Below are positions 26,942 through 38,882 of a DNA stretch of 64,000 nucleotides, in pieces. Position 1 is the first letter of the stretch. Every line of letters begins with the position of its first letter. Both the position numbers and the translations under genes were made by a program. This DNA is from Candidatus Latescibacterota bacterium (lineage in GTDB: Bacteria > Latescibacterota > UBA2968 > UBA8231): NCBI GenBank assembly GCA_965200315.1, contig OZ241362.1:3872001-3936000 (forward strand), given 5' to 3'. The notes below the pieces were generated by a model, which was not told the origin of the DNA, made no database searches, and saw nothing but the letters and a program-made list of their open reading frames with translations.

Positions 26942-27687
<746 letters not shown>

Positions 27688-27691
<4 letters not shown>

Positions 27692-28962
27692 ACGGCGTTG
27701 CCCATTACCAGTCCTGCTTTAACGACCTCGCCGACACGGGCGCGTTGCTGTCGCGGCGGCAAAAGGCCATTGAGCACTTTGCCGCCGCTGGATTTCCCAC
27801 GACCAAAGACGAGGAATGGGCTTTTACCAACATCGGCCCGCTGACTCGGATCAAATTCAAACTAGCCGCGTCCGCGCTCGCACCGGTCGCTTTCGACGAC
27901 TACCGCTACGGGCTCGAAGGGCTGGTCTTTGTTGATGGCCACTTTGCCGCCGCCCCCGAACTCAACGGCCTGCCCGCTGGGGTGCGCGTCGAGAGCTTGA
28001 GCGAAAACGGCGTAGTCGCGGACTTCTTGGGCCGAGCCGCCACCACCGAGGACGCGGCCTTCACCGCGCTCAATACCGCCTTTTTGCAAGACGGTGCGGT
28101 CGTCTATCTGCCTCGGGGTGCGGTCGTCGAGCAGCCCATTCACTTGCTGTTTGTCTCCACTGGCCAACGCGCCAACGTCGTCTCCCATCCGCGCGTCCTC
28201 GTAGTCGCCGAAGCCAACGCCCAAGCGACGATAATAGAAAGCTACGTCGGCTTGGATTCGGAACCGTATCTGACCAACAGCGTCAGCGAATTCTTCGTCG
28301 GCCCCAATGCCGCGCTCGATCACTACCGAATCCAGCGCGAGTCCGCCGCCGCCTTTCACATCGCAGCGACCCACGTCCGCGAGGAACGCGCCGCCCAATT
28401 CCGCTCGACCGCCATCACCTTGGGCGGACGCCTGACCCGTCACCACATCCACACCGCGCTAGAAGGCGAAGGCGTCGACTCCACGCTCAACGGCCTCTAC
28501 ATCGAAGACGGAGCGCAACACGTCGATAACCACACGCTCATCGAACACGCCCAGCCGCACTGCCAGAGCCACGAGTTCTACAAGGGCATCCTCGGCGGCC
28601 GAGCCACCGGCGTCTTCCGCGGCAAAATCCACGTTCACCAAGCCGCGCAAAAAACCGACGCCTATCAGGCCAACCAAAACCTCCTGCTGTCGGAAACGGC
28701 CCAAATCAACACCAAGCCCCAGCTCGAAATCTACGCCGACGACGTCAAGTGTTCGCACGGAGCCACCATCGGCCAACTCGACGAAGACGCGCTCTTTTAC
28801 CTGCGCTCCCGCGGCATCGGCCACCAAGAAGCTGTCCGGGTGCTGACGCGGGCCTTTGCCGGCGAAGTCCTCGACCGCGTACGCGTCCCGGTCCTCAAAA
28901 ACCAACTCGACCAGCTAGTAAATCATCGGCTGGACCAAGCCGCCGCCGGAGTTGCCCGATGA
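27688..28962 (+). CDS. sufD: Fe-S cluster assembly protein SufD
   Basis: [48 protein letters not shown]; ATG overlaps the sufC stop. Confidence 0.95.
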
Positions 28963-30188
28963 CCGCTTCCTTTGACATCGACAAGATTCGTTGCGACTTC
29001 CCCGTACTCGACGAGAAAATCCGCGGCAAAGATCTCGTCTATTTCGACAACGGCGCAACCACCCAAAAGCCGCTGACGGTCCTCTACGCGCTCCAGCGCT
29101 ACTACGCCCGCGAAAACGCCAACATCCACCGCGGCGTCCACTTCCTCAGCCAACAGGCGACCTTTGCCTACGAGCGGGCGCGCGGCCGGGTCGGCCAGTT
29201 CATCAACGCCGGCGAGAGCAACGAAGTCGTCTTCGTGCGCGGCACCACCGAGGCGCTCAATCTCGTCGCCCACAGCTACGGCCGGCCGCAGCTCGGCCCG
29301 GACGACGAGATCATCGTCTCCCAGCTAGAGCACCATTCCAACATCGTACCGTGGCAAATGCTGTGCGAGGAAAAGGGGGCGCGCCTGCGGGTAGTGCCCA
29401 TCAGCGATACAGGCGAGTTCCGCTTCGACGAGTACGAGCGTCTGCTGTCCGAGCGCACCCGCATCGTGGCCGTCGCCCACGCTTCCAACGCCCTCGGCAC
29501 GATCCTGCCGGTGCAGGAAATCGCCGCCTTGGCCCATCAGCACGGCGCAGTTGTCGTCGTCGATGGGGCGCAAGGAGTGCCCCACTTGCCGGTGGACGTG
29601 CAGGAACTCGACTGCGACTTCTACGCCTTTTCCGGGCACAAGCTCTTCGGCCCCACCGGCATCGGCGTACTCTACGGCAAGCAGGCCCTTTTACACGCCA
29701 TGCCGCCATACCAAGGCGGCGGCTCCATGATCGAGAAGGTGAGCTTTGCCGGCACCACGTATGCTCCCCCGCCGATGCGCTTTGAGGCCGGCACGCCGCA
29801 CATCGCCGGCGTCATTGGCTTGGAGACCGCCATTGATTACGTCAACTCGGTGGGCCGCGAGCAAATCGCGGCGTACGAGGCCGACTTGCTCGCGTACGCA
29901 GACGCAGCCCTTGCCAGCATTCCGGGACTGCGCCTGATCGGCACGGCCCGCGAGCGCGTGGCCGTGATCTCCTTCGCGCTCGACGACATCCACCCGCACG
30001 ACATCGGCACCATTCTCGACGCCGAGGGCATTGCCGTGCGCGCTGGCCACCACTGCGCCCAGCCGACCATGCAGTTTTACCAAGTGCCCGCTACAGTGCG
30101 CGCCTCGTTGGCTTTTTACAACACGCACGCGGAAATCGACGCCCTAGTCGCGGCGTTACACAAGGTCAAGAAGGTGTTTGGGGCGTGA
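28959..30188 (+). CDS. sufS: Cysteine desulfurase SufS
   Basis: YFDNGATTQKP, EHHSNIVPW, FSGHKLFGPTG, RAGHHCAQP. Confidence 0.97.
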   Translation: MTASFDIDKIRCDFPVLDEKIRGKDLVYFDNGATTQKPLTVLYALQRYYARENANIHRGVHFLSQQATFAYERARGRVGQFINAGESNEVVFVRGTTEALNLVAHSYGRPQLGPDDEIIVSQLEHHSNIVPWQMLCEEKGARLRVVPISDTGEFRFDEYERLLSERTRIVAVAHASNALGTILPVQEIAALAHQHGAVVVVDGAQGVPHLPVDVQELDCDFYAFSGHKLFGPTGIGVLYGKQALLHAMPPYQGGGSMIEKVSFAGTTYAPPPMRFEAGTPHIAGVIGLETAIDYVNSVGREQIAAYEADLLAYADAALASIPGLRLIGTARERVAVISFALDDIHPHDIGTILDAEGIAVRAGHHCAQPTMQFYQVPATVRASLAFYNTHAEIDALVAALHKVKKVFGA

Positions 30189-30232
30189 GGAATAGATAGT
30201 GATTTACACAACATCCACAAGGTTTTTTAACC

Positions 30233-30685
30233 ATGACTGAGCTTCGCGAGCTGTACCAGCAGATCATCCTCGACCACAACAAAAATCCGCGCAACTTCGG
30301 CAAGCTGCCCGCGGCCAATCGCAGGCAAGAAGGCTACAATCCCCTGTGCGGCGATCACTTGCACATCTATCTCCATGTGGCCGACGAGCGCATTGCCGAC
30401 ATCAGCTTTGACGGGTCGGGTTGCGCCATTTCCAAAGCCTCGGCTTCCCTGATGACCGCCGCGCTCAAAGGCAAGCGTCCCGACGAGGCGGTCGAGCTGT
30501 TCGAGCAGTTCCAGCAGATGGTGACTGCGGAGCCGGACGCGCCCGTTGATCACCAAGCCTTGGGCAAGATGGCCGTCTTCGCTGGGGTGCGCGAATTCCC
30601 CATGCGCGTCAAGTGCGCGACCCTCGCTTGGCACGCCGCCAAAGCAGCCATAGAACAAGACCCGTCGCCTGCATCCACCGAATAG
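30233..30685 (+). CDS. sufU: SufU (SUF-system NifU-family protein)
   Basis: LYQQIILDH..NPRN, NPLCGD, GCAISKAS, RVKCATL. Confidence 0.95.
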   Translation: MTELRELYQQIILDHNKNPRNFGKLPAANRRQEGYNPLCGDHLHIYLHVADERIADISFDGSGCAISKASASLMTAALKGKRPDEAVELFEQFQQMVTAEPDAPVDHQALGKMAVFAGVREFPMRVKCATLAWHAAKAAIEQDPSPASTE

Positions 30686-30713
30686 CAAAGCACCATTTAA
30701 AAAGGAGTCCTCC

Positions 30714-31052
30714 ATGGAACTGTTGCACGAAAAAACCTTCCCCCCCGACTCTACCGAGGCCAAAGTCGTAGCCGTGCTCAAGACCTGCTACGACCCCGAG
30801 ATTCCGGTCGATATCTTTGCCCTCGGCCTAATCTACGACATCGAGGTCAGCGACTCGCAGGACGTCCACGTGACCATGACCTTGACCTCGCCAGCCTGTC
30901 CGGTCGCTGGTACGCTACCGCCAGAAATTGAGCACAAAATCAAGGACCATGTCCCGGGCATCGCCACGGCCTTGGTCGAGGTCGTGTGGGATCCGCCGTG
31001 GACGATCGACATGATGACCGAGGGGGCCAAACTCGAACTAGGCATGATGTAG
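30714..31052 (+). CDS. sufT: DUF59/SufT Fe-S assembly protein
   Basis: YDPEIPVDI..LGLIY, MTLTSPACP, VWDPPW. Confidence 0.88.
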   Translation: MELLHEKTFPPDSTEAKVVAVLKTCYDPEIPVDIFALGLIYDIEVSDSQDVHVTMTLTSPACPVAGTLPPEIEHKIKDHVPGIATALVEVVWDPPWTIDMMTEGAKLELGMM

Positions 31053-31056
31053 AAAG

Positions 31057-31116
31057 GCAGTGGTTAGTGATCAGTGGCCGGTAATCAGTCCGGGGCCACT
31101 GGCTACTGACCTCTGC
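31057..31116. repeat. Imperfect inverted repeat built from 7-mer units
   Basis: GCAGTGGTTAGTGATCAGTGGCC (31057-31079) versus GGCCACTGGCTACTGACCTCTGC (31094-31116). Confidence 0.55.
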
Positions 31117-31133
31117 TCAGTGGAGAGATTGTT

Positions 31134-31577
31134 ATGAAACTCAACTCGAGCGAAGAATACGGCTTGCGTTGCCTCTTGCAACTAGCGCGCCAAGCCCCCG
31201 GCAGCCTGACCATCCCGGAAATCAGCCAAGCCGAGGGCATCACCCATCACAACGTCGCCAAGCTCTTGCGCATTCTCCGGCAGGGCGGCTTTGTGGCAAG
31301 CGCCCGCGGCCAGCAAGGCGGCTACGCCCTCGCCAAGCCCCCCCACCAAATCCCCGTAGCTGACGCGCTCGCCACGCTGGGTGGTCGCCTCTTCGACGAC
31401 GATTTCTGCGATCACTTTGCCGGCAGCGCGGATTGCTGTACACACTCGCTCACCGCGTGCTCGGTGCGCGCCCTGTGGGGGCAAGTGCAGCAGGCCGTCG
31501 ATCAAATTTTATCGCGCACAACCCTCGCCGACCTGCTGGAGGCCGACGAAGAGGCCCTGCTCGATATATCGGCTTAG
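31134..31577 (+). CDS. Rrf2-family (IscR-like) transcriptional regulator
   Basis: EYGLRCLLQLA, SARGQQGGYALAK, Cys cluster FCDHF...DCCTH...ACSV. Confidence 0.92.
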   Translation: MKLNSSEEYGLRCLLQLARQAPGSLTIPEISQAEGITHHNVAKLLRILRQGGFVASARGQQGGYALAKPPHQIPVADALATLGGRLFDDDFCDHFAGSADCCTHSLTACSVRALWGQVQQAVDQILSRTTLADLLEADEEALLDISA

Positions 31578-31592
31578 AGATAGTACGCTAAG

Positions 31593-33115
31593 ATGAAAAA
31601 AGTTTTGCTGTGCTGGATTGGCACTACAGATTTGTGTGCCTCACAAGGCGATGATGTTGGCCAGGGTCCTATTGCACAGGCCGTGGAGCAGCGCGGGTTT
31701 GACGAGGTATTTTTGATCTCAAACTACTTGGAGCGAGAGGACCAGTATCCGTGTAGCCGCGTACGTCGAATGGGCAAAGAAACGGAGCTCGACGCCACAC
31801 CAATTATATGAGGAGAAGCTATCAGGCCCGACCCATTTCGGCGAAATCTACAAAGCGGCGAGGCGCGTTTGCGAAAAGGCTTTGGGCGGACAGCACGATC
31901 AAGTGGAATTGACGTTTCACCTGAGTCCTGGGACGCCGGCCATGGCCGCGGTGTGGATCATCTTAGCGAAAACGCGCTTTCCCGCTGAATTGATTGAGTC
32001 TTCAAGAGAATACGGCGTTCAAACAGCGTCTGTTCCCTTCGATATTTCGGCCGAATTCTTGCCCGATCTCTTACGCAAACCCGACGCCCAACTCCGCTCG
32101 GCCAGCGCAGAGAAACCCACAGAATCGGCAAGTTTTGCCAACATACTCTACCGCAGTCCGATCATGGCGCGTTTGGTCAAAAAAGCGCAGCGAGTCGCAG
32201 TGCGGAACGTTCCCGTTTTGCTCGAAGGCGAATCCGGCACCGGGAAAGAGCTTTTTGCCCGCGCCATTCACAAAGACAGTCTGCGAAAGAATAAACCGTT
32301 TATCGCGGTAAACTGCGGTGCAATTCCGCCAAGTCTCGTAGAATCCGAACTGTTTGGACATGAAAAAGGCGCGTTTACCGGCGCAAATGCGCCGGCGCAA
32401 AGGTCATTTTGAAGCGGCCAATAGTGGGACGCTCTTTTTGGATGAAATCGGCGAGTTGCCCAAAGACATGCAGGTCAAATTGTTGCGCGTCCTCCAAGAG
32501 GGCGAGGTCGTCCGCCTCGGTGCATCCGAACCTATTTCCGTAAATGTACGCATTGTGGTGGCAACTAACCGGAATCTCGTGGAGGAAGTGCGCGAAGGAC
32601 GATTTCGCGAGGACTTGTTTTATCGGATTGCCGTGGCCTATCTCAAAGTGCCGCCCTTGCGGGACCGCGAGGGAGATGTGGGGCGGCTGATTGACCATTT
32701 GGTTGAACAGATCAACCAAGAAAACGAAAAACAGTCCGGACAGCCCGGCTATAAACGTAAAGAAATTTCCGCTGGAGCAAGAAATCTTCTTCTAAATCAC
32801 TCTTGGCCGGGCAATATACGCGAATTGCAAAACACACTGAGACGCGCCATGGTGTGGGCCGACGGCGAAATGCTCGACAAACAAGATATTGAAGAGGCAC
32901 TCTTGCCCCCTTACGACAAGGGCGGCGATATACTGAACCGCCCATTAGGTGGGGGATTTAGTCTAGAAGAGCTCCTTGGCGAAGTGGCCAGACACTATCT
33001 TCAGCGTGCCAACCAAGCGGCTGCGACGAAAAAGAAAGCGGCTGAACTAGTGGGAGCAACGAGTCCGCAGACATTTACCAACTGGCTGGCGAAGTACAAG
33101 GTGGAATGGACGTGA
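31593..33115 (+). pseudogene. Sigma-54-dependent activator with N-terminal CARF/RtcR-like sensor; two +1 frameshifts
   Basis: Fragments join as VLLCWIGTTDL..GPI / ..[34 protein letters not shown] / KGHFE..LFLDEIGEL..FREDLFYR..WPGNIREL..HTH. Shifts near 31730-31745 and 32388-32393. Confidence 0.85.
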
Positions 33116-33156
33116 GGTTTGGGGCAGGCCCTAGTTGTGCCGGCTTTACTCGCAAC

Positions 33157-33188
33157 GGTGAGTATCGAGTGATACTCACCATTTTTTT
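33157..33188 (+). terminator. Rho-independent terminator
   Basis: GGTGAGTATC-gagt-GATACTCACC followed by ATTTTTTT. Confidence 0.85.
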
Positions 33189-33488
33189 GTCTGATAAGTA
33201 ACCTCACCTAGGTGCGCGAGCGTTCTGCCCCCTGTGCAAGCCTCTGGCTCGCGCACCCAAGGGCAGGAGAAAAGACCGGCATGTAGAGCAGGCGTCGTGT
33301 ACTTAGGTCTGGAAAACTAATTTGATAGACCGAAATCATCTAAAAAATTACGCTGACGCAAAAAAATTTACGTTCAATCACCGCCTCGATCTGAATTAGC
33401 GAAGAGGCCAGCGCGTTTCGGGCGTGAAGATTGGCACAAAACAAGGAAAAGTTGCCAAAGATCGAAAAAAATCAGGTTCAACTCGAAT

Positions 33489-33503
33489 TGGCACGGTATT
33501 TGC
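33489..33503 (+). promoter_or_regulatory. Sigma-54 (-24/-12) promoter
   Basis: TGGCAC-GGTAT-TTGC, exact consensus spacing, about 370 bp downstream of the sigma-54 activator gene. Confidence 0.85.
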
Positions 33504-33560
33504 GAGTAAATAGCGCGTAAACCAACTCCTAACTCTCAAATAGAAAGGAGGTAATCAATT

Positions 33561-33632
33561 ATGTGGCCAGCCATATTCCTCACATTGTTTATATATGCCG
33601 GCGAACGCATCATCGACAAGATCCTTGATTAG
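33561..33632 (+). CDS. Micro-ORF 1, 23-aa hydrophobic/amphipathic peptide MWPAIFLTLFIYAGERIIDKILD
   Basis: SD AGAAAGGAGGT 8 nt upstream; first ORF after the sigma-54 promoter; below the ORF-track cutoff. Confidence 0.6.
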   Translation: MWPAIFLTLFIYAGERIIDKILD

Positions 33633-33730
33633 CGGCTTTATAGCGTAGAGCTCAACATCTCGCAGGGCAGCACCAACTCGTTGCCCTGCGATGATTCATC
33701 CCTTTAAGCCTCAATAGAAAGGAGCCGATA

Positions 33731-33889
33731 ATGGCGCGAAGAATTCGCAGCGACGCACGAATAAGAACCGTCGAGAAGAAGCTGGGCATCGGGAACAGCC
33801 TTACGAACCCCAACGGACGAAATGCTCGTTCCGATAAAAAACTTGGGAACCTGCGTAAGAGTTGGGAGAAATCTGGTAGGAAGAAATGA
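33731..33889 (+). CDS. Micro-ORF 2, 52-aa basic protein MARRIRSDARIRTVEKKLGIGNSLTNPNGRNARSDKKLGNLRKSWEKSGRKK
   Basis: SD AGAAAGGAG 6 nt upstream; internally duplicated RSD motif. Confidence 0.72.
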   Translation: MARRIRSDARIRTVEKKLGIGNSLTNPNGRNARSDKKLGNLRKSWEKSGRKK

Positions 33890-33925
33890 GGTATCGCAAA
33901 TACTATAATGAAAGGAGGTGATTCT

Positions 33926-34003
33926 ATGAAAAAATGGCTACCACTTGCTATCCAGATAGCTATTGCCCTGCTAGACAATTGGCCGTCGAAGCGGCACTCG
34001 TAG
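33926..34003 (+). CDS. Micro-ORF 3, 25-aa hydrophobic peptide MKKWLPLAIQIAIALLDNWPSKRHS
   Basis: SD AAAGGAGGTGA 4 nt upstream; followed by a GC hairpin. Confidence 0.6.
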   Translation: MKKWLPLAIQIAIALLDNWPSKRHS

Positions 34004-34016
34004 CGTGGGCACTTAT

Positions 34017-34044
34017 CGGGGGCGGGGATTCATGCCCGCCCCCG
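34017..34044 (+). terminator. GC-rich hairpin closing the micro-ORF unit
   Basis: CGGGGGCGGG-gattcatg-CCCGCCCCCG; weak U-tract. Confidence 0.55.
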
Positions 34045-34055
34045 GGTACAGTTTC

Positions 34056-34084
34056 TTGACAAAGCGGCTAGTTGATTATAGACT
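34056..34084 (+). promoter_or_regulatory. Sigma-70 promoter for the ATPase gene pair
   Basis: TTGACA-N17-TAGACT, 32 bp upstream of ATG 34117. Confidence 0.75.
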
Positions 34085-34116
34085 AGCATTCTTTCCCCTG
34101 AACTTGAGAGAACATC

Positions 34117-35640
34117 ATGGCTCTTACATCTATTACCATAGAAAACTTTAAGTGCATCGGCGACGCCGTGACCATTCCCATCCGCCCGATCACCTTGCTG
34201 TTTGGCAAAAACAGCTCGGGGAAATCGACGGTGTTGCAAGCCCTGTTATATATGCGAGAACGATTTATACCTTTCCATCAAGGCGAGACATTTGGCGTGG
34301 CAATCGCTCCGAGGGATTTGAAACCTATGAAAAACATACCTATTACGCTGGGAGACTTCCCTTCCTTAGTACATCGCCATGATATGAATCGAAAGATCCG
34401 TATCTGTCTTGAATTTGACTTAAAGGGAAAAAAATATGATTCTGTGGAGATAGAATTAGTAGTGGGTTGGGATGAAACAAAACAGATTGATTCTGTTGAG
34501 TCATATACATACACTTTGAATGGTGAAAAATCATTTCATGCTTTGAAAAAATCCCATCCGCTAGCTAAAGATCAGCAACTGAATGAGATAGAGGGTCGTC
34601 ATTATTCTATATCTGACGACAAACACGATGAGGAAGGATATGTATTTTTTTCAAATGGGGATTCTTCAATTATAAAAAAAACAGAAGAGTCCCCCTCAAA
34701 GACGCCTGAATCATACAAGTATAGACCTCGATTGGATTTAAGAGAGTGTCTTAATGACATTATAAAAGAATTAAACGACACTCGGCATATAGGCCCAACC
34801 CGAGAAGTGCCTCCTCGTCATTATATTGCACTCCAAAGGTCTGATGAGTCTCGGTGGGGAACCGGACTGGCAGCTTGGGATGCAATAGCACAAGATGCAG
34901 AATTGGCCAAAAAAGTAAATAGCTATGCTAAAAAGTTAAAACTTGGATACAGTTTCTTGCAGTCAACTAGAGTTTATCTTGATTTGAACGGCGAAATTAT
35001 AGCATATCTAAAGGAAATCTGCTCCTCTGATAAAGATATTAAAGTTAGTAACCTAAAAGAGCACGTTCTCGATCCTCTTGAGTCGCTATCTCGCCAGTAT
35101 CCGGTTCTACTTCAGGATGAAAACAGCAGTATAGAAGTACATCCCTTAGATGTTGGTTCTGGCATTTCTCAAGTCTTTCCGGTTCTCGTAGGTGCGCTAG
35201 ACCATAGTTCTAAAATATTTGCGGTTGAACAGCCGGAGCTTCATATTCATCCTGCTGTTCAAGTGGCATTAGGCGATATGTTTATTGATGGCATACGAAA
35301 TAGCAATCGCCCTATGCTCATCGAAACGCATTCTGAGCACTTGCTGTTGCGACTACTGCGGCGCGTACGTGAGACTAACATTCAAAACGAGAAAAAGTAC
35401 GAATGGAGACAAAGTGAAATGACCCCGCTGGTACGGGAGATGTCAGAGGACGCTATTCGGGACGCAGAAAACCAAAACTCGAAGGCTCACCAATTGACGC
35501 CAGAGGAGTTATCTGTGGTTTATGTTCGACCAACGCCAGAAGGAGTTAAATTCATCCCAATCAGCGTAACGCATGACGGAGACTTCTATGCCCCTTGGCC
35601 AGAAGGCTTCTTCGACGAACGCGTGAAGGAGCTTTTCTAA
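34117..35640 (+). CDS. ABC-type ATPase (AAA_15/AAA_21-like) with C-terminal DUF3696-like motif
   Basis: IENFKCI, GKNSSGKST, GSGISQ, VEQPELHIHP, IETHSEH, WPEGFFD; AT-rich DNA. Confidence 0.88.
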   Translation: MALTSITIENFKCIGDAVTIPIRPITLLFGKNSSGKSTVLQALLYMRERFIPFHQGETFGVAIAPRDLKPMKNIPITLGDFPSLVHRHDMNRKIRICLEFDLKGKKYDSVEIELVVGWDETKQIDSVESYTYTLNGEKSFHALKKSHPLAKDQQLNEIEGRHYSISDDKHDEEGYVFFSNGDSSIIKKTEESPSKTPESYKYRPRLDLRECLNDIIKELNDTRHIGPTREVPPRHYIALQRSDESRWGTGLAAWDAIAQDAELAKKVNSYAKKLKLGYSFLQSTRVYLDLNGEIIAYLKEICSSDKDIKVSNLKEHVLDPLESLSRQYPVLLQDENSSIEVHPLDVGSGISQVFPVLVGALDHSSKIFAVEQPELHIHPAVQVALGDMFIDGIRNSNRPMLIETHSEHLLLRLLRRVRETNIQNEKKYEWRQSEMTPLVREMSEDAIRDAENQNSKAHQLTPEELSVVYVRPTPEGVKFIPISVTHDGDFYAPWPEGFFDERVKELF

Positions 35641-35642
35641 TA

Positions 35643-36608
35643 ATGATCTGTGAATACGCCTTGGAGCCAGAACTTGTCGCAACGTGGTACGACGATCTAC
35701 ATTACCACTACTTTATCACACGTTTCGGTTTTGATCCTCAGGATGGTCGCGCAACGGGCCGTGTAGTAACTCAATATCCCAGCAGGAGTTGGAAGAAAAA
35801 AGTCTGGAATGCGTTTAATGCAAACTCTGGACAATCTAACTCCCGAATTGAACGGGGACGGATTACAGAGCTACTGAAACAGTTGGGGACACCAAGTACC
35901 AGTCGTTCCGCCAACACTTGGAAAGATCATCAATCTTGGCTTGAAAATGCTGAACAAGAGAATAAACGTCATCCATTTCATGCGATTTTGGCCCTTGACA
36001 ACCCACGAAACAATCCCCAAGTCGTGCGTGGGAACGATATGATCGAGAAGCCCCCGCCTCCAATTTGGCAGGTGCCTGGTGAAACCCCGATACAGAGTTC
36101 TGCTATTTCAATGGCAACACGCCTCGAGCCAATGCTGCGCTGTGCAACGCGAATACTCTTTATTGATCCATATTTTAGGGCGTCAGAATCGAGATGGCAG
36201 GACCCTTTACAAGAGTTCCTAAAGATCATCTGTGACGGTAGCCGTGAGGTTACACTCGAATACCACGCTTCAGCCAGCTACAAAGGGGCACCGAGTTGGA
36301 AACATTTTTCTAGGGAATGCCGATGTCGTCTTAGCCCTCTCATCCCCCAGGGTTTCACGCTCACTGTCCATCGTTGGGAGAATAGGAATAACGGACAACA
36401 GTTACATAATCGCTATATCCTTACTGACATCGGCGGCGTACTGTTCGGCGCCGGGCTCGCCGAAAGCGCTCCATATGATAAAGATGATATCCACCGCTTA
36501 TCCTATGAAGCCTGGCAGCAACGGTTAAATGATTACGGCAATTCTAATCCTGCATTTGATCCGGATCCGGATGGAGATCCAATAGTTATCAGAGGCACTA
36601 AACCATGA
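35643..36608 (+). CDS. Uncharacterised ATPase partner with PLD-like C-terminal motifs
   Basis: ATG 2 nt after the ATPase stop; MICEYALEPE, FIDPYF, LHNRYILTDIGGVLFGAGL. Confidence 0.65.
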   Translation: MICEYALEPELVATWYDDLHYHYFITRFGFDPQDGRATGRVVTQYPSRSWKKKVWNAFNANSGQSNSRIERGRITELLKQLGTPSTSRSANTWKDHQSWLENAEQENKRHPFHAILALDNPRNNPQVVRGNDMIEKPPPPIWQVPGETPIQSSAISMATRLEPMLRCATRILFIDPYFRASESRWQDPLQEFLKIICDGSREVTLEYHASASYKGAPSWKHFSRECRCRLSPLIPQGFTLTVHRWENRNNGQQLHNRYILTDIGGVLFGAGLAESAPYDKDDIHRLSYEAWQQRLNDYGNSNPAFDPDPDGDPIVIRGTKP

Positions 36609-36679
36609 GAAAAGAAACAAGAGGCGGGCACATCCATTAAGACTTGTCACGCACAACGGGCTATAAGCGTTAACCCCCC

Positions 36680-37522
36680 TCACCCCCTAAACCCATCCTC
36701 CTCCCCCTCGGCCCGATGCCTGTACAGCAGCTTGACCGCCTCCGGCAGAGCCTCGTAGGCCGCCCGCGGCACAATCGCATTGTTGCGCCCGCCAAATTCC
36801 ACGCTCAACCACCACGGACAATAGCGCGTGATAATAGCCACCCTCGGCTCCGGGCTGGGGTTCGCCGCGGTCGAATGCCAAATTCGGCTGTCCATCACCA
36901 GCGCACTGCCCGCCGGGCCGACGACCTGGATCTCCCCGCGAATCGGCTTGAACTGATCGATCCGCTCTTTTAGCCCTTCGGGCGTCTGGTGCATCCGCGG
37001 ATTGAGCGGGTCGCGGTGGCTGCGCGGCACCACCCACGTCCCGCCCGTCTGCGGGCCAAACGGCGACAACATCCACAACACCGATAGCTGCATGGTCGCG
37101 TCCGGGAAGGGCTGCGCCACCCGGCCGGCAAAGTCCCGGTCGGTCAGGTCGTGTGGCCAATCCGAGTGAAAGCCGCGCCAGTCCAAGTCTTCGCGGTCGG
37201 GCACTTGCGTCTTAAACTCGGTCTGCGCGATCCGCACGTGCCCGCCAAAGACCGCCTGAGCCACCCCCAACAAACGCTCGTCGCCCAAATACGGAGCAAA
37301 CGCCGGCAAATACGCGATCAAGCAAACGCCCGGCTCGCCGTTGGGGCCGGTCTGCCGCCCGATGTGCCCGCCCATAGCCTCGTAGTCCTGCTGCGCCTTT
37401 GCGTGCGCTTCTTGCACGTGCGCCCGCACACGGTCTATGGCGTCCTCTGGAATAATTCGCTCCAAGACGCACCAACCCTCGCGGCGCAATTGATCCACTT
37501 TCTCCTTTATCTCAGCGTCCAT
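36680..37522 (-). CDS. Phytanoyl-CoA dioxygenase (PhyH) family Fe(II)/2OG enzyme
   Basis: EGWCVL, FHSD (HxD), GGTWVVPRSH, DSRIWHST; start taken at MDAEIK. Confidence 0.88.
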   Translation of the reverse strand: MDAEIKEKVDQLRREGWCVLERIIPEDAIDRVRAHVQEAHAKAQQDYEAMGGHIGRQTGPNGEPGVCLIAYLPAFAPYLGDERLLGVAQAVFGGHVRIAQTEFKTQVPDREDLDWRGFHSDWPHDLTDRDFAGRVAQPFPDATMQLSVLWMLSPFGPQTGGTWVVPRSHRDPLNPRMHQTPEGLKERIDQFKPIRGEIQVVGPAGSALVMDSRIWHSTAANPSPEPRVAIITRYCPWWLSVEFGGRNNAIVPRAAYEALPEAVKLLYRHRAEGEEDGFRG

Positions 37523-37541
37523 AAGACCTCTCATTTCCCGG

Positions 37542-37570
37542 TTGCCGAAGCAGTCACGTACTGCTATACT
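37542..37570 (+). promoter_or_regulatory. Putative sigma-70 promoter
   Basis: TTGCCG-N17-TATACT in the divergent intergenic gap. Confidence 0.5.
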
Positions 37571-37613
37571 AGCCACATAGCGAATGTATCCCATCCTTTC
37601 CCCGGCCCTCCTA

Positions 37614-38882
37614 ATGCACATCACCGACATCGAAGTCCACGCCATCTGCCCGCCGTATTGCGACTTCAACGCCCTACAGTTGGCCCGCTACCACGGCGCA
37701 CGCATCCAACGCCGCGCCATCCTCGTCGTCCACACCGACAACGGCCTAGAGGGCCTCGGCGAGACCATCGGCGACGCACCCGACAGCGACGCCTTGCGCG
37801 CCAAATACATCGGAACCTCGCCCTTTGACTGGATCAACGCCGAGCAGGACCTCGCCATGAACATGGCTTGCTACGACCTAATGGGCAAGCACCTCGGCAT
37901 CCCTGTGTGGAAACTGATCGGCCCCAAGGTCCGCTCGTGGATTCCGATCGCCGCTTGGACCGTGGCCCAAGCCCCAGACGCCATGGCCGAAGAAGTGCGC
38001 CAAGCTGCCGCTCGCGGCTATCACTGGATCAAATACCACGTCGATGAAATGCAGGACGTCATCGCCCAAACCGAGGCCATGCAGGAGGCCGCCCCACCCT
38101 ATTTCAAGGTCCACTACGACTTCAACGCCAACAGCAACTACTACACCATGCGCACCATTCTCGCCGAGTTGGTCAAATTCCGCGTCGCCGGGCGCTTTGA
38201 AGACGTAGTCCAAGGCACGGACGAAGATGCCTACCGCATGTTGCGCGAGCAGTGCCCGCTGCCCATCATCGGCCATCACGTCCCGGCCGAAGCCATGACC
38301 AAGCGCTACGTCGATGGAACCATGGCCGGGCACGCTCCCATCGGCAGTGCCGTCAAGCAAGCCGCCATTGCCGAGCGGCTCAACATGCCCCTCATGTACC
38401 AACAGACCGGCGGCACCATCAACCAAGCCTTCTTGGCCCACGAAGTCGCGGTTTTCAAAATGGCCACCATCGACCACGTCAATTGCTGCCACCTGTGGCA
38501 GGAGGACGTGGTCAAAGACCCCATGCCTGTAGTCGACGGCAGCGTCGCCGTGCCCGCCGGACCGGGTTTGGGGGTCGAACTCGATCGCGCACAATTGAAA
38601 AAATTGGCCAGCGCGGCTCCGATCGCTAAAGGCCGCTTCTTGATCCGCATCCACTCCGCAGGCGGTCTCACCGCGTATGTGCGCCACGACCCCGAGCCGA
38701 GCGGCTCTACCGACAATCTGCGCTTCCACGACCGCCTGCACCGCCAAGGTATCCCCGGCCGACCGCCTTCGTACGCCAACCCGCTCACCACTGAATTCTG
38801 GGACGCGGACAAAGACCCCGAGCACTTTGAGGAGCTCTGGCAGGCTACGGCCGACGGCCCTTTATGGAAAGAGGAAGGTTAG
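37614..38882 (+). CDS. Mandelate racemase/muconate lactonising enzyme family (enolase superfamily)
   Basis: VHTDNGLEGLGE, YDLMGKHLGIPVWKLIG, IKYH, YDFN, PAGPGLGVELD. Confidence 0.88.
   Translation: MHITDIEVHAICPPYCDFNALQLARYHGARIQRRAILVVHTDNGLEGLGETIGDAPDSDALRAKYIGTSPFDWINAEQDLAMNMACYDLMGKHLGIPVWKLIGPKVRSWIPIAAWTVAQAPDAMAEEVRQAAARGYHWIKYHVDEMQDVIAQTEAMQEAAPPYFKVHYDFNANSNYYTMRTILAELVKFRVAGRFEDVVQGTDEDAYRMLREQCPLPIIGHHVPAEAMTKRYVDGTMAGHAPIGSAVKQAAIAERLNMPLMYQQTGGTINQAFLAHEVAVFKMATIDHVNCCHLWQEDVVKDPMPVVDGSVAVPAGPGLGVELDRAQLKKLASAAPIAKGRFLIRIHSAGGLTAYVRHDPEPSGSTDNLRFHDRLHRQGIPGRPPSYANPLTTEFWDADKDPEHFEELWQATADGPLWKEEG

Follow-up and report, generated by a model that had tools for sequence, protein, structure and literature searches.

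Organisation of the locus

The window analysed here is a stretch of 64,000 nucleotides from a Candidatus Latescibacterota bacterium, covering positions 3,872,001–3,936,000 of its 5.36-Mb single-contig genome; coordinates below are positions within the window. We describe a gap of about 1 kb that separates the gene for an RtcR-like CARF/sigma-54 activator from a pair of genes for an ATPase and a predicted nuclease. The gap holds a sigma-54 promoter, three very short open reading frames (ORF1, ORF2 and ORF3, here called micro-ORFs) and stable hairpins. It is probably a real and conserved transcription unit, an operon that would act as the inducible leader of a defence-like locus.

All the elements lie on the plus strand. 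The activator gene (31593–33115), which encodes CARF, sigma-54 AAA+ and HTH regions according to PADLOC and Pfam, is followed by an intrinsic terminator (33157–33190), in which a 10-bp stem precedes ATTTTTTT. The sigma-54 (−24/−12) promoter TGGCACGGTATTTGC (33489–33503) matches TGGCAC-N5-TTGC, and transcription is expected to start near 33515. Behind it come ORF1 (23 aa, 33561–33632), with a Shine-Dalgarno sequence (SD) at 33544–33551; a hairpin recognised by its folding energy (33657–33695); ORF2 (52 aa and very basic, 33731–33889), with its SD at 33718; ORF3 (25 aa, 33926–34003), with the SD AAAGGAGG at 33911–33918; and a closing GC hairpin (34016–34045), which is supported by folding and covariation and may be a partial terminator or a stabiliser. 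A sigma-70-like promoter for the ATPase operon, TTGACA-17-TAGACT (34056–34084), has 10 of 12 consensus matches. The operon itself consists of an AAA_15 / DUF3696-tailed ABC-type ATPase (34117–35640; Pfam and PADLOC) and a 322-aa partner (35640–36608) with a predicted phospholipase D (PLD)/Nuc-like fold and an H-x-R-x4-D motif.

An initial annotation of this DNA had placed a −24/−12 promoter, three SD-led ORFs and a closing hairpin in the gap, and each of them lies where it had been put. That inventory was incomplete, because the gap also contains the canonical terminator of the activator gene and the sigma-70-like promoter. The sequence AAAGGAG stands before each of the three ORF starts (at 33544, 33718 and 33911). 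It occurs 14 times in the window, against 6.9 ± 2.8 expected, and three of these copies serve the micro-ORFs.

Conservation within the genus

A DNA search for the locus in 61 related genomes gave matches in 12 (G000 included). The promoter, the three SDs, the starts, the stops and both hairpins co-align in six sequences, which include those of five other genomes of the same genus. In eight wider loci compared by tblastn the gene order is kept: Rrf2-type gene, activator, micro-ORFs, ATPase, partner and PhyH-type gene.

Across 31590–36650 the G+C content is 38–53%, against 58–66% in the flanks. Recent acquisition of a low-GC island was considered as an explanation and dropped: the locus is found at the same chromosomal site throughout the genus, and is therefore not a recent arrival. 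Its parts have not diverged equally. Protein identity to the relatives is 81–96% for ORF2, 66–91% for the pieces of the activator, 33–65% for the ATPase and 24–60% for the partner. The modules are mosaic, in that ORF2 of the window is nearest to that of G007 (96%), the ATPase to those of G023 and G003 (61–65%) and the partner to those of G140, G013 and G135 (51–60%). Neither the cassette nor any one of its three ORFs has a second copy in the window's own genome.

The surroundings are also recognisable. The region 27169–31577, read by eye, is presumably a Suf-like operon for Fe-S cluster assembly that ends in the Rrf2-type regulator. Throughout the genus, the variable locus described here lies between this regulator and a gene for a PhyH-type dioxygenase (36680–37669, minus strand).

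The sigma-54 promoter and its activators across the phylum

The promoter TGGCACGGTATTTGC is the sole TGGCAC-N5-TTGC in the 64-kb window, where 0.14 would be expected and where 13 of 100 shuffles gave at least one; the 5.36-Mb genome contains 29. The GG-N10-GC core lies inside this match and is oriented correctly upstream of the micro-ORFs. The genome encodes rpoN.

For a view across the phylum, 168 genomes were searched with PDLC01995, and 30 full-length loci were collected with 1.5-kb flanks. In 24 of the 30, TGGCAC-N5-NTGC (TGGTAC in one) comes right after the activator, between 15 nt upstream and 66 nt downstream of its stop codon (347 nt in one locus). What lies behind the motif differs: micro-ORFs in 11 loci, the AAA_15 ATPase directly in seven, and an HsdR-like (HSDR_N/ResIII) restriction subunit in four, of which one type is fused to a Peptidase_S24 domain. 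The remaining two have an unknown 327-aa protein in one case, and in the other a small protein with an insertion sequence behind it. Wherever there are micro-ORFs, the sigma-54 promoter directly precedes them (11/11 loci). The alignment and the phylum-wide loci support the conservation of promoter and micro-ORFs and their association with the activator. The view of the micro-peptides as the output of the promoter fares less well, and fails as a statement about a sole output: in seven of the 30 loci the ATPase follows the same promoter directly, so that the micro-ORFs are an optional add-on. To judge from these arrangements, they are optional, shuffled modules between promoter and cargo.

Four types of micro-ORF occur in varying sets, namely the ORF1, ORF2 and ORF3 types and a fourth with the sequence MSK..ARLAAELAVAILNVLLGRSK. 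The fourth type (29–32 aa, ARLAAELAVAILNVLLGRSK) is found in G023 (locus L017) and G003 (L018), between ORF3 and the ATPase. This type comes with an SD and a hairpin of its own, and a long inverted repeat lies behind them; both genomes are without ORF1 and ORF2. A further small protein (IFRRGRPSRQEPPNRPG.YRFR...GE.VNIARR) lies behind the sigma-54 promoter and ahead of an insertion sequence in G124 (L069). The same protein (IFRRGRPSRQEPPNRPG) is present in G047 (L089), where it is followed by an ORF3 pseudogene and by a second ATPase cassette.

Between the activator terminator and the sigma-54 promoter there are about 300 nt (33190–33488) that have no counterpart in most relatives. This spacer contains a second TGGCAC at 33432 (with no GC at −12), repeated TTACG words and a TTGGCA...TGCCAA palindrome at 33431–33458. 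Within it, 45 nt (33246–33290) match contig C77 of G008 at 84% identity and may be a short repeated element. G124 (L069) has a similarly long spacer with a second GG-N10-GC element. The spacer of the window could hold enhancer sites of the activator.

ORF2 defines a family of basic microproteins

The firmest evidence that the gap is coding comes from ORF2, which has a net charge of +13. Its ratio of nonsynonymous to synonymous substitution rates (dN/dS) over eight copies is 0.165, compared with 1.24 and 1.04 in the shifted frames, and 30 of its 55 variable columns fall at codon position 3. On this codon pattern, ORF2 clearly evolves as a protein. It has 19 database relatives of 49–82 aa with 57–92% identity, one of them a hypothetical protein from a metagenome-assembled genome (MAG) of Gemmatimonadota. 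When 1.84 billion representatives were searched with an ORF2 profile, 229 clusters (50% identity) matched at E ≤ 1e-3, and 71 passed the stricter threshold of E ≤ 1e-10. The longer members carry tails rich in Lys, Ala and Pro, or a tandem copy of the domain. The description of ORF2 as very basic and as a real protein is therefore upheld by its charge, by the codon analysis and by the homologues.

It was not possible to assign the family to a known one. NCBIfam, PADLOC and PHROGs, searched with ORF2 alone of the three, gave no family, and Pfam gave nothing for ORF1, ORF2 or ORF3. Pfam searches of ten longer family members gave sub-threshold hints of Ribosomal_L23 and Ub-Mut7C in one. The profile had no hits at E ≤ 10 among PDB sequences, and the ESM Atlas returned three unnamed clusters at 0.91–0.92 and no family. 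The AlphaFold2 model of ORF2 has a predicted local distance difference test (pLDDT) score of 89.8. Foldseek found no hit to it at E ≤ 0.001; the top hits are nearly all ubiquitin-like, with E values of 0.8–3, and the best Z in a VIA-wide fold comparison is 4.5. The likeness of the model to ubiquitin-like β-grasp folds is not significant, and no fold is assigned.

A spacer that contains non-coding RNA or chance ORFs would also be expected to lack known protein families and might have strong RNA structures, as this one does. Such a reading is at odds with the codon-position pattern of ORF2 (30/55; dN/dS 0.165) and its homologues in several phyla, and with the retention of SD, ATG and stop in all copies but one. 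Nor does the region resemble a known RNA: Rfam, run in E-value mode on 33000–34200, gave no family at gathering score, the best match being CC2171 (19.9 bits against 75). An ordinary intergenic spacer is accordingly a very improbable explanation of the gap, and it is largely refuted for ORF2.

The family is also found in other genomic surroundings. It lies beside a different 40-aa hydrophobic ORF and without the activator in two genomes of family f2, and on its own in a MAG of Thermodesulfobacteriota; it also occurs in three IMG/VR contigs, one phage record and one Paenibacillus plasmid. The context of the plasmid relative is uninformative. In the IMG/VR contigs L091 (4001–4153) and L092 (2797–2964), the family member is flanked by genes that we take to encode a terminase large subunit and a portal protein, and in L093 the neighbours are presumably DNA methyltransferases. 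In loci L035 and L043 (G048 and G050), an ORF2 homologue and then the 40-aa hydrophobic ORF lie downstream of a gene for a 433-aa protein. We take the N-terminus of this protein to be similar to an XRE-type HTH, and the small genes around it to be of toxin–antitoxin types. Upstream in these two loci, a GG-N10-GC element (TGGATATGTTTTAGC) overlaps with a site of the form TTGACA-16-TATGTT. From the charge of +13 and from these contexts we infer that ORF2 may bind nucleic acid.

ORF1 and ORF3

ORF1 has a hydrophobic N-terminal half and a charged tail with the motif IYAGERIIDKI. There are seven copies in six genomes, each with an SD, an ATG and a stop codon. ORF3 follows the pattern KWLP...Q.A....DNWPSKR(R/H), with the conserved core KWLP..Q......DNWPS. 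Taken together, the copies retain SD, ATG and stop in all cases but one. An ORF3 profile found matches in 13 of the 168 genomes; the top ten, and the two weaker ones that were inspected (G047 and G053), are all at activator/ATPase loci. One of the two weaker matches follows an activator remnant, and the other precedes a second ATPase cassette. In G004 (L012, 7628–7848) ORF1 and its hairpin are tandemly duplicated, and ORF3 there is divergent (MIIWQPTGPYIALAILKSLYKWLAKRR).

The two ORFs had been read as membrane-type peptides. Their hydrophobic character and charged tails agree with this, but the reading was overstated, since the cores are just 13–14 residues long: these are the longest uncharged runs in most ORF1 and ORF3 copies, and the maximum Kyte-Doolittle value, KD(13), is 1.8–2.7.

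Stress-induced toxins of type I (TisB, Ibs, Ldr, Fst and others) are peptides of 20–35 aa that carry charged ends around a hydrophobic core; their expression is under tight control, and stable RNA hairpins lie nearby. The micro-ORFs might be independent toxin or addiction modules of this general type, lodged in a variable island and only by coincidence next to the activator and the ATPase pair. Small hydrophobic ORFs with strong SDs and stable hairpins nearby do resemble such loci; the modules are shuffled between genomes; and in the f2 genomes ORF2 stands next to a different hydrophobic ORF, with no such activator within ±8 kb. Several features differ from type I systems. No antisense antitoxin RNA was identified here: no antisense RNA gene is evident in the region, and the sole minus-strand promoter-like site (33930–33902, 9/12) is within the shuffle count. 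The cores are of 13–14 residues, and the control would be by a sigma-54 activator. Against a coincidental neighbourhood speak the finding of ORF3-type peptides, among the copies inspected, only at activator/ATPase loci, and the sigma-54 promoter that directly precedes the micro-ORFs in 11 of 11 loci. We regard independent modules as quite improbable.

Hairpins and the sigma-70-like promoter

The terminator of the activator gene has a folding energy of −17.7 kcal/mol (z −3.3). The hairpin between ORF1 and ORF2 (−30.5 kcal/mol, z −5.3) is stronger than the closing hairpin and has no U-tract. It is near-invariant in the six aligned sequences, with one compensatory swap from A-U to U-A in the window copy, and it occurs only where ORF1 is present.

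The closing hairpin shows covariation. In 12 loci, 96.1% of cells are paired, compared with 46–62% in slid controls, and seven of the 13 pairs have changed on both sides. The GC hairpin of the initial annotation is present; it is not a canonical terminator, because it has no clean U-tract. The sequence TTTCTTGACA, in the ATPase promoter region, is kept after this hairpin in the aligned loci.

These structures bear on the rival that we rate highest, in which ORF1 and ORF3 would be leader peptides or upstream ORFs that act with the hairpins to tune read-through into the ATPase operon, with ORF2 as a passenger. A conserved hairpin follows ORF1 and another follows ORF3, and each ORF is gained and lost together with its hairpin: ORF1 with its hairpin is duplicated in G004, and absent from G013, G135 and G140. 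ORF3, hairpin, TTGACA and ATPase likewise form a fixed unit, even where ORF3 has an in-frame stop, and the dN/dS of ORF3 is 0.73. Loci without micro-ORFs go from the same promoter straight to the ATPase. The conserved peptide sequences (IYAGERIIDKI and KWLP..Q......DNWPS) and the near-perfect SDs speak against a leader role alone. Direct coupling between ribosome and hairpin is also not obvious, as in the window 12 nt separate the ORF3 stop from the core stem of its hairpin and about 25 nt the ORF1 stop from its own stem, and in other loci there are about 20 nt from the ORF3 stop to the stem. Finally, a separate sigma-70-like promoter lies between the hairpin and the ATPase. We consider it unlikely that the micro-ORFs are leaders and nothing more.

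The activator

Returning to the reading of the gap as an inducible operon, its proposed regulator is the protein encoded immediately upstream. In the assembly the gene is split over three frames (31593–31811, 31882–32412 and 32354–33115). All three pieces match the PADLOC model RtcR_PspF2--CARF_AAA_HTH, over positions 1–481, with E values of 2e-8, 4e-71 and 3e-97. The N-terminus is CARF-like: residues 2–58 of the first piece match positions 1–54 of PDLC01995 (2.1e-8) and also CARF4 (7.2e-8), and the second piece resumes from position 89 of the PADLOC model. Pfam identifies Sigma54_activat (4e-32 and 1.3e-33) and AAA_lid_14 (1.8e-20). The GAFTGA loop is present in the translation of 31882–32412, and the PADLOC model is covered, C-terminal HTH region included, to its last position, 481. 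The designation as a CARF-like activator is thus confirmed and sharpened to a CARF-AAA+-HTH activator of sigma-54. It is not RtcR proper. The NCBIfam RtcR equivalog cut-off of 650 bits is not reached (scores of 118 and 199.7), and in place of rtcA and rtcB the activator has beside it the micro-ORFs and the genes for the AAA_15 ATPase and the PLD-fold protein.

In the relatives the homologues are single open frames of 498–540 aa. The window sequence has two +1 indels, an extra base in a 10-base insert near 31730–31739 and an extra G at 32391, neither of which falls in a homopolymer. A pseudogene was considered, and the indels were checked by aligning to the locus the contigs of four public runs (X1, X2, X5 and X6) from two studies. 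At full depth, the contigs of all four runs are without the base at 32391. Every X6 and X1 contig, and X2 as well, is also short of a base at 31744 or 31747; for X5, a single low-depth contig showed neither of these last two omissions in the rows listed. The frameshifts are therefore most simply explained as errors or a rare variant of the assembly, and the activator gene is probably intact. The pseudogene was dropped as a candidate, and the repair that the initial annotation had thought necessary is probably not needed, as the extra bases are missing from the public-run contigs. The same contigs are without 2 nt in the spacer between SD and ATG of ORF1 (33550–33560), which gives the spacing found in two of the aligned relatives, L006 and L007. 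Similar false frameshifts may be present in other genes of this genome.

The ATPase and its partner

The ATPase matches AAA_15 in Pfam (7.8e-25) and DUF3696 weakly (0.014). Its best PADLOC models include PDC-M55A (1.1e-47), NsnB (4.3e-40), AriA (1.2e-27) and HEC-03B. The 322-aa partner gives nothing usable in Pfam, NCBIfam, PADLOC or PHROGs, and has 474 unnamed homologues. A comparison of its AlphaFold2 model (pLDDT 87.5) with the PDB gave matches to 38 chains at E ≤ 1e-3. Most of these belong to the PLD family (Nuc, NucT, SauUSI, Zucchini and bacterial PLDs), and the alignments span about 140–200 columns. In 40 sequences, residues H256, R258, L261, T262, G265 and G266 are invariant. In the motif H-x-R-x4-D, an R replaces the K of H-x-K, so that nuclease activity is plausible but not shown. 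Of the pair of ATPase and nuclease that had been proposed, the AAA_15/DUF3696 ATPase and the PLD/Nuc fold hold; on the basis of the model, the partner is a plausible predicted nuclease.

The combination of an AAA_15 ATPase and a partner of nuclease fold, in two genes, recalls AriA/AriB of PARIS, GajA of Gabija, PDC-M55 and NsnB of Menshen. The pair does not qualify as PARIS. The AriA model is weaker than PDC-M55A and NsnB, and the partner has no PADLOC hit; its fold is PLD-like with an H-x-R motif, and not the Toprim/DUF4435 of AriB. For PDC-M55, component A is matched at 1.1e-47 and the partner matches no model.

Proposed function

On the basis of these observations, we propose the following sequence of events. 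By analogy with RtcR, the activator would sense a signal derived from nucleotides or RNA. It would then open sigma-54 RNA polymerase at the promoter after its own gene; the placement of the promoter is borne out by conserved synteny, and its activation is a prediction. A transcript of about 540 nt would encode ORF1 and ORF3, as hydrophobic peptides, and the conserved basic ORF2, and it would stop at the covarying GC hairpin or partly read through it. The sigma-70-like promoter would give basal expression of the ATPase and the PLD-fold partner, to which read-through would add an induced level.

There is a hint of such a transcript in public data. Seven public runs contain the stretch, of which two, both from one study, are metatranscriptomic. 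Their contigs cover 33521–34080 (depth 11.3) and 33612–34107 (depth 9.2). At 33210–33390 the RNA contigs reach a depth of 0.7, and the DNA runs show a flat depth there, of 20 and 37; the runs were selected for 33400–35000, and therefore these depths cannot rank genes and uncovered parts are not evidence. The coverage fits a start near 33515, as a weak hint.

What the products would do is a guess, unproven: ORF2 might bind nucleic acid, and ORF1 and ORF3 might be an induced, membrane-acting output that arrests growth or serves as an amplifier. In its fullest form, the proposal would have a CARF sensor release membrane peptides (22–32 aa) and a near-universal, nucleic-acid-binding microprotein of about 50 aa, with relatives in phage packaging modules too, through sigma-54 transcription, not allostery, as a first and reversible growth-arrest or alarm layer ahead of the ATPase/PLD nuclease. 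We put this forward as a rather unlikely extension of the transcription unit itself. A role of the micro-peptides as toxins, in dormancy or in abortive infection is hypothetical.

A number of observations weigh against the inducible operon, or against parts of it. For ORF1 the dN/dS is 0.335 over seven copies, against 0.371 in frame +1, and for ORF3 it is 0.73 over ten copies, against 0.38 and 1.20 in the shifted frames; both results are weak. The two ORFs are too short for a firm coding test, and their coding case stands because SD, ATG and stop are retained and the peptide motifs are conserved. Hydrophobic cores of 13–14 residues are, as far as sequence can tell, short for a membrane span. 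The ORF3 copy before the second ATPase cassette has an in-frame TAG, with the hairpin and TTGACA retained. Six of the 30 activator loci, all of family f4, have no sigma-54 motif and a HAD hydrolase downstream. ORF2 is found without the activator, so that its role need not depend on this sensor. No enhancer site of the activator was identified at the locus, where no systematic search was made for one. The RNA runs had been chosen for holding the stretch 33400–35000, and contigs cannot show transcript ends. Activation, translation and phenotype of the cassette are predictions from sequence.

Relation to known systems

In type III CRISPR signalling, CARF-linked membrane effectors such as Cam1 have sensor and effector in one fusion protein, and their CARF domain works by allostery. 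If the membrane is where ORF1 and ORF3 act, the present locus would resemble them in coupling a CARF sensor to a membrane output; it would differ in a coupling through transcription and in effectors that are separate micro-peptides. In the phage-shock response, PspF and sigma-54 drive pspA–E and pspG, which encode small membrane-associated proteins, under envelope or phage stress. The likeness here is a sigma-54 activator of the PspF branch with small, possibly membrane-associated products; however, PspF has no CARF domain, and Pfam searches of the neighbouring genes gave no PspA-like gene at this locus. PspF is mentioned in one of the two sources on RtcR-like activators (PMC4012209).

The nearest published relatives of the regulatory arrangement are those of RtcR. 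In the RtcR-rtcBA regulon of E. coli and Salmonella, as presented in parts of four sources (PMC4012209, PMC11090510, PMC7790460 and PMC9650030), a CARF-AAA+-HTH activator likewise lies beside its own sigma-54 promoter. Here the best PADLOC model is RtcR_PspF2, not RtcR, and the cargo is micro-ORFs with the ATPase and PLD protein, not RtcA and RtcB. Two of these papers (Makarova 2014, PMC4012209; Bell 2024, PMC11090510) describe RtcR-like CARF activators that lie next to restriction-modification systems or head CoCoNuT superoperons, and the proposed signal is RNA with cyclic-phosphate ends. These superoperons share with the present loci an activator at the 5′ end of co-oriented defence genes, and an HsdR-like cargo is found here in four of the 30 loci. 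As RtcR-like activators heading defence operons are thus in print, the regulatory principle is known, as a prediction.

The statement of the initial annotation that no such system had been described can be kept in part. We found no published description of the micro-ORF cassette, and the passages of PMC4012209 and PMC11090510 consulted here mention no SD-led micro-ORFs between activator and cargo and no AAA_15/PLD cargo, although the supplementary neighbourhood tables may list similar loci; the RtcR-like heads of defence operons are, by contrast, described in both. The layout is real, conserved and, in its details, new.

Implications

Genes of less than 60 aa are skipped by annotation, and an "empty" 1-kb gap is here the most conserved part of a defence-like locus. 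The cassette provides a testable case of targets of an RtcR-like CARF activator outside RNA repair, which the two papers cited above raise only as a prediction. It also defines an unnamed and widespread family of basic proteins of about 50 aa, with 229 clusters, which is present in phage contigs as well. If the peptides are induced effectors or modulators, similar cassettes would be worth seeking between the sensors and effectors of other defence islands. Should the fullest form of the proposal be true, micro-ORF leader cassettes would be an overlooked new class of output of defence islands.

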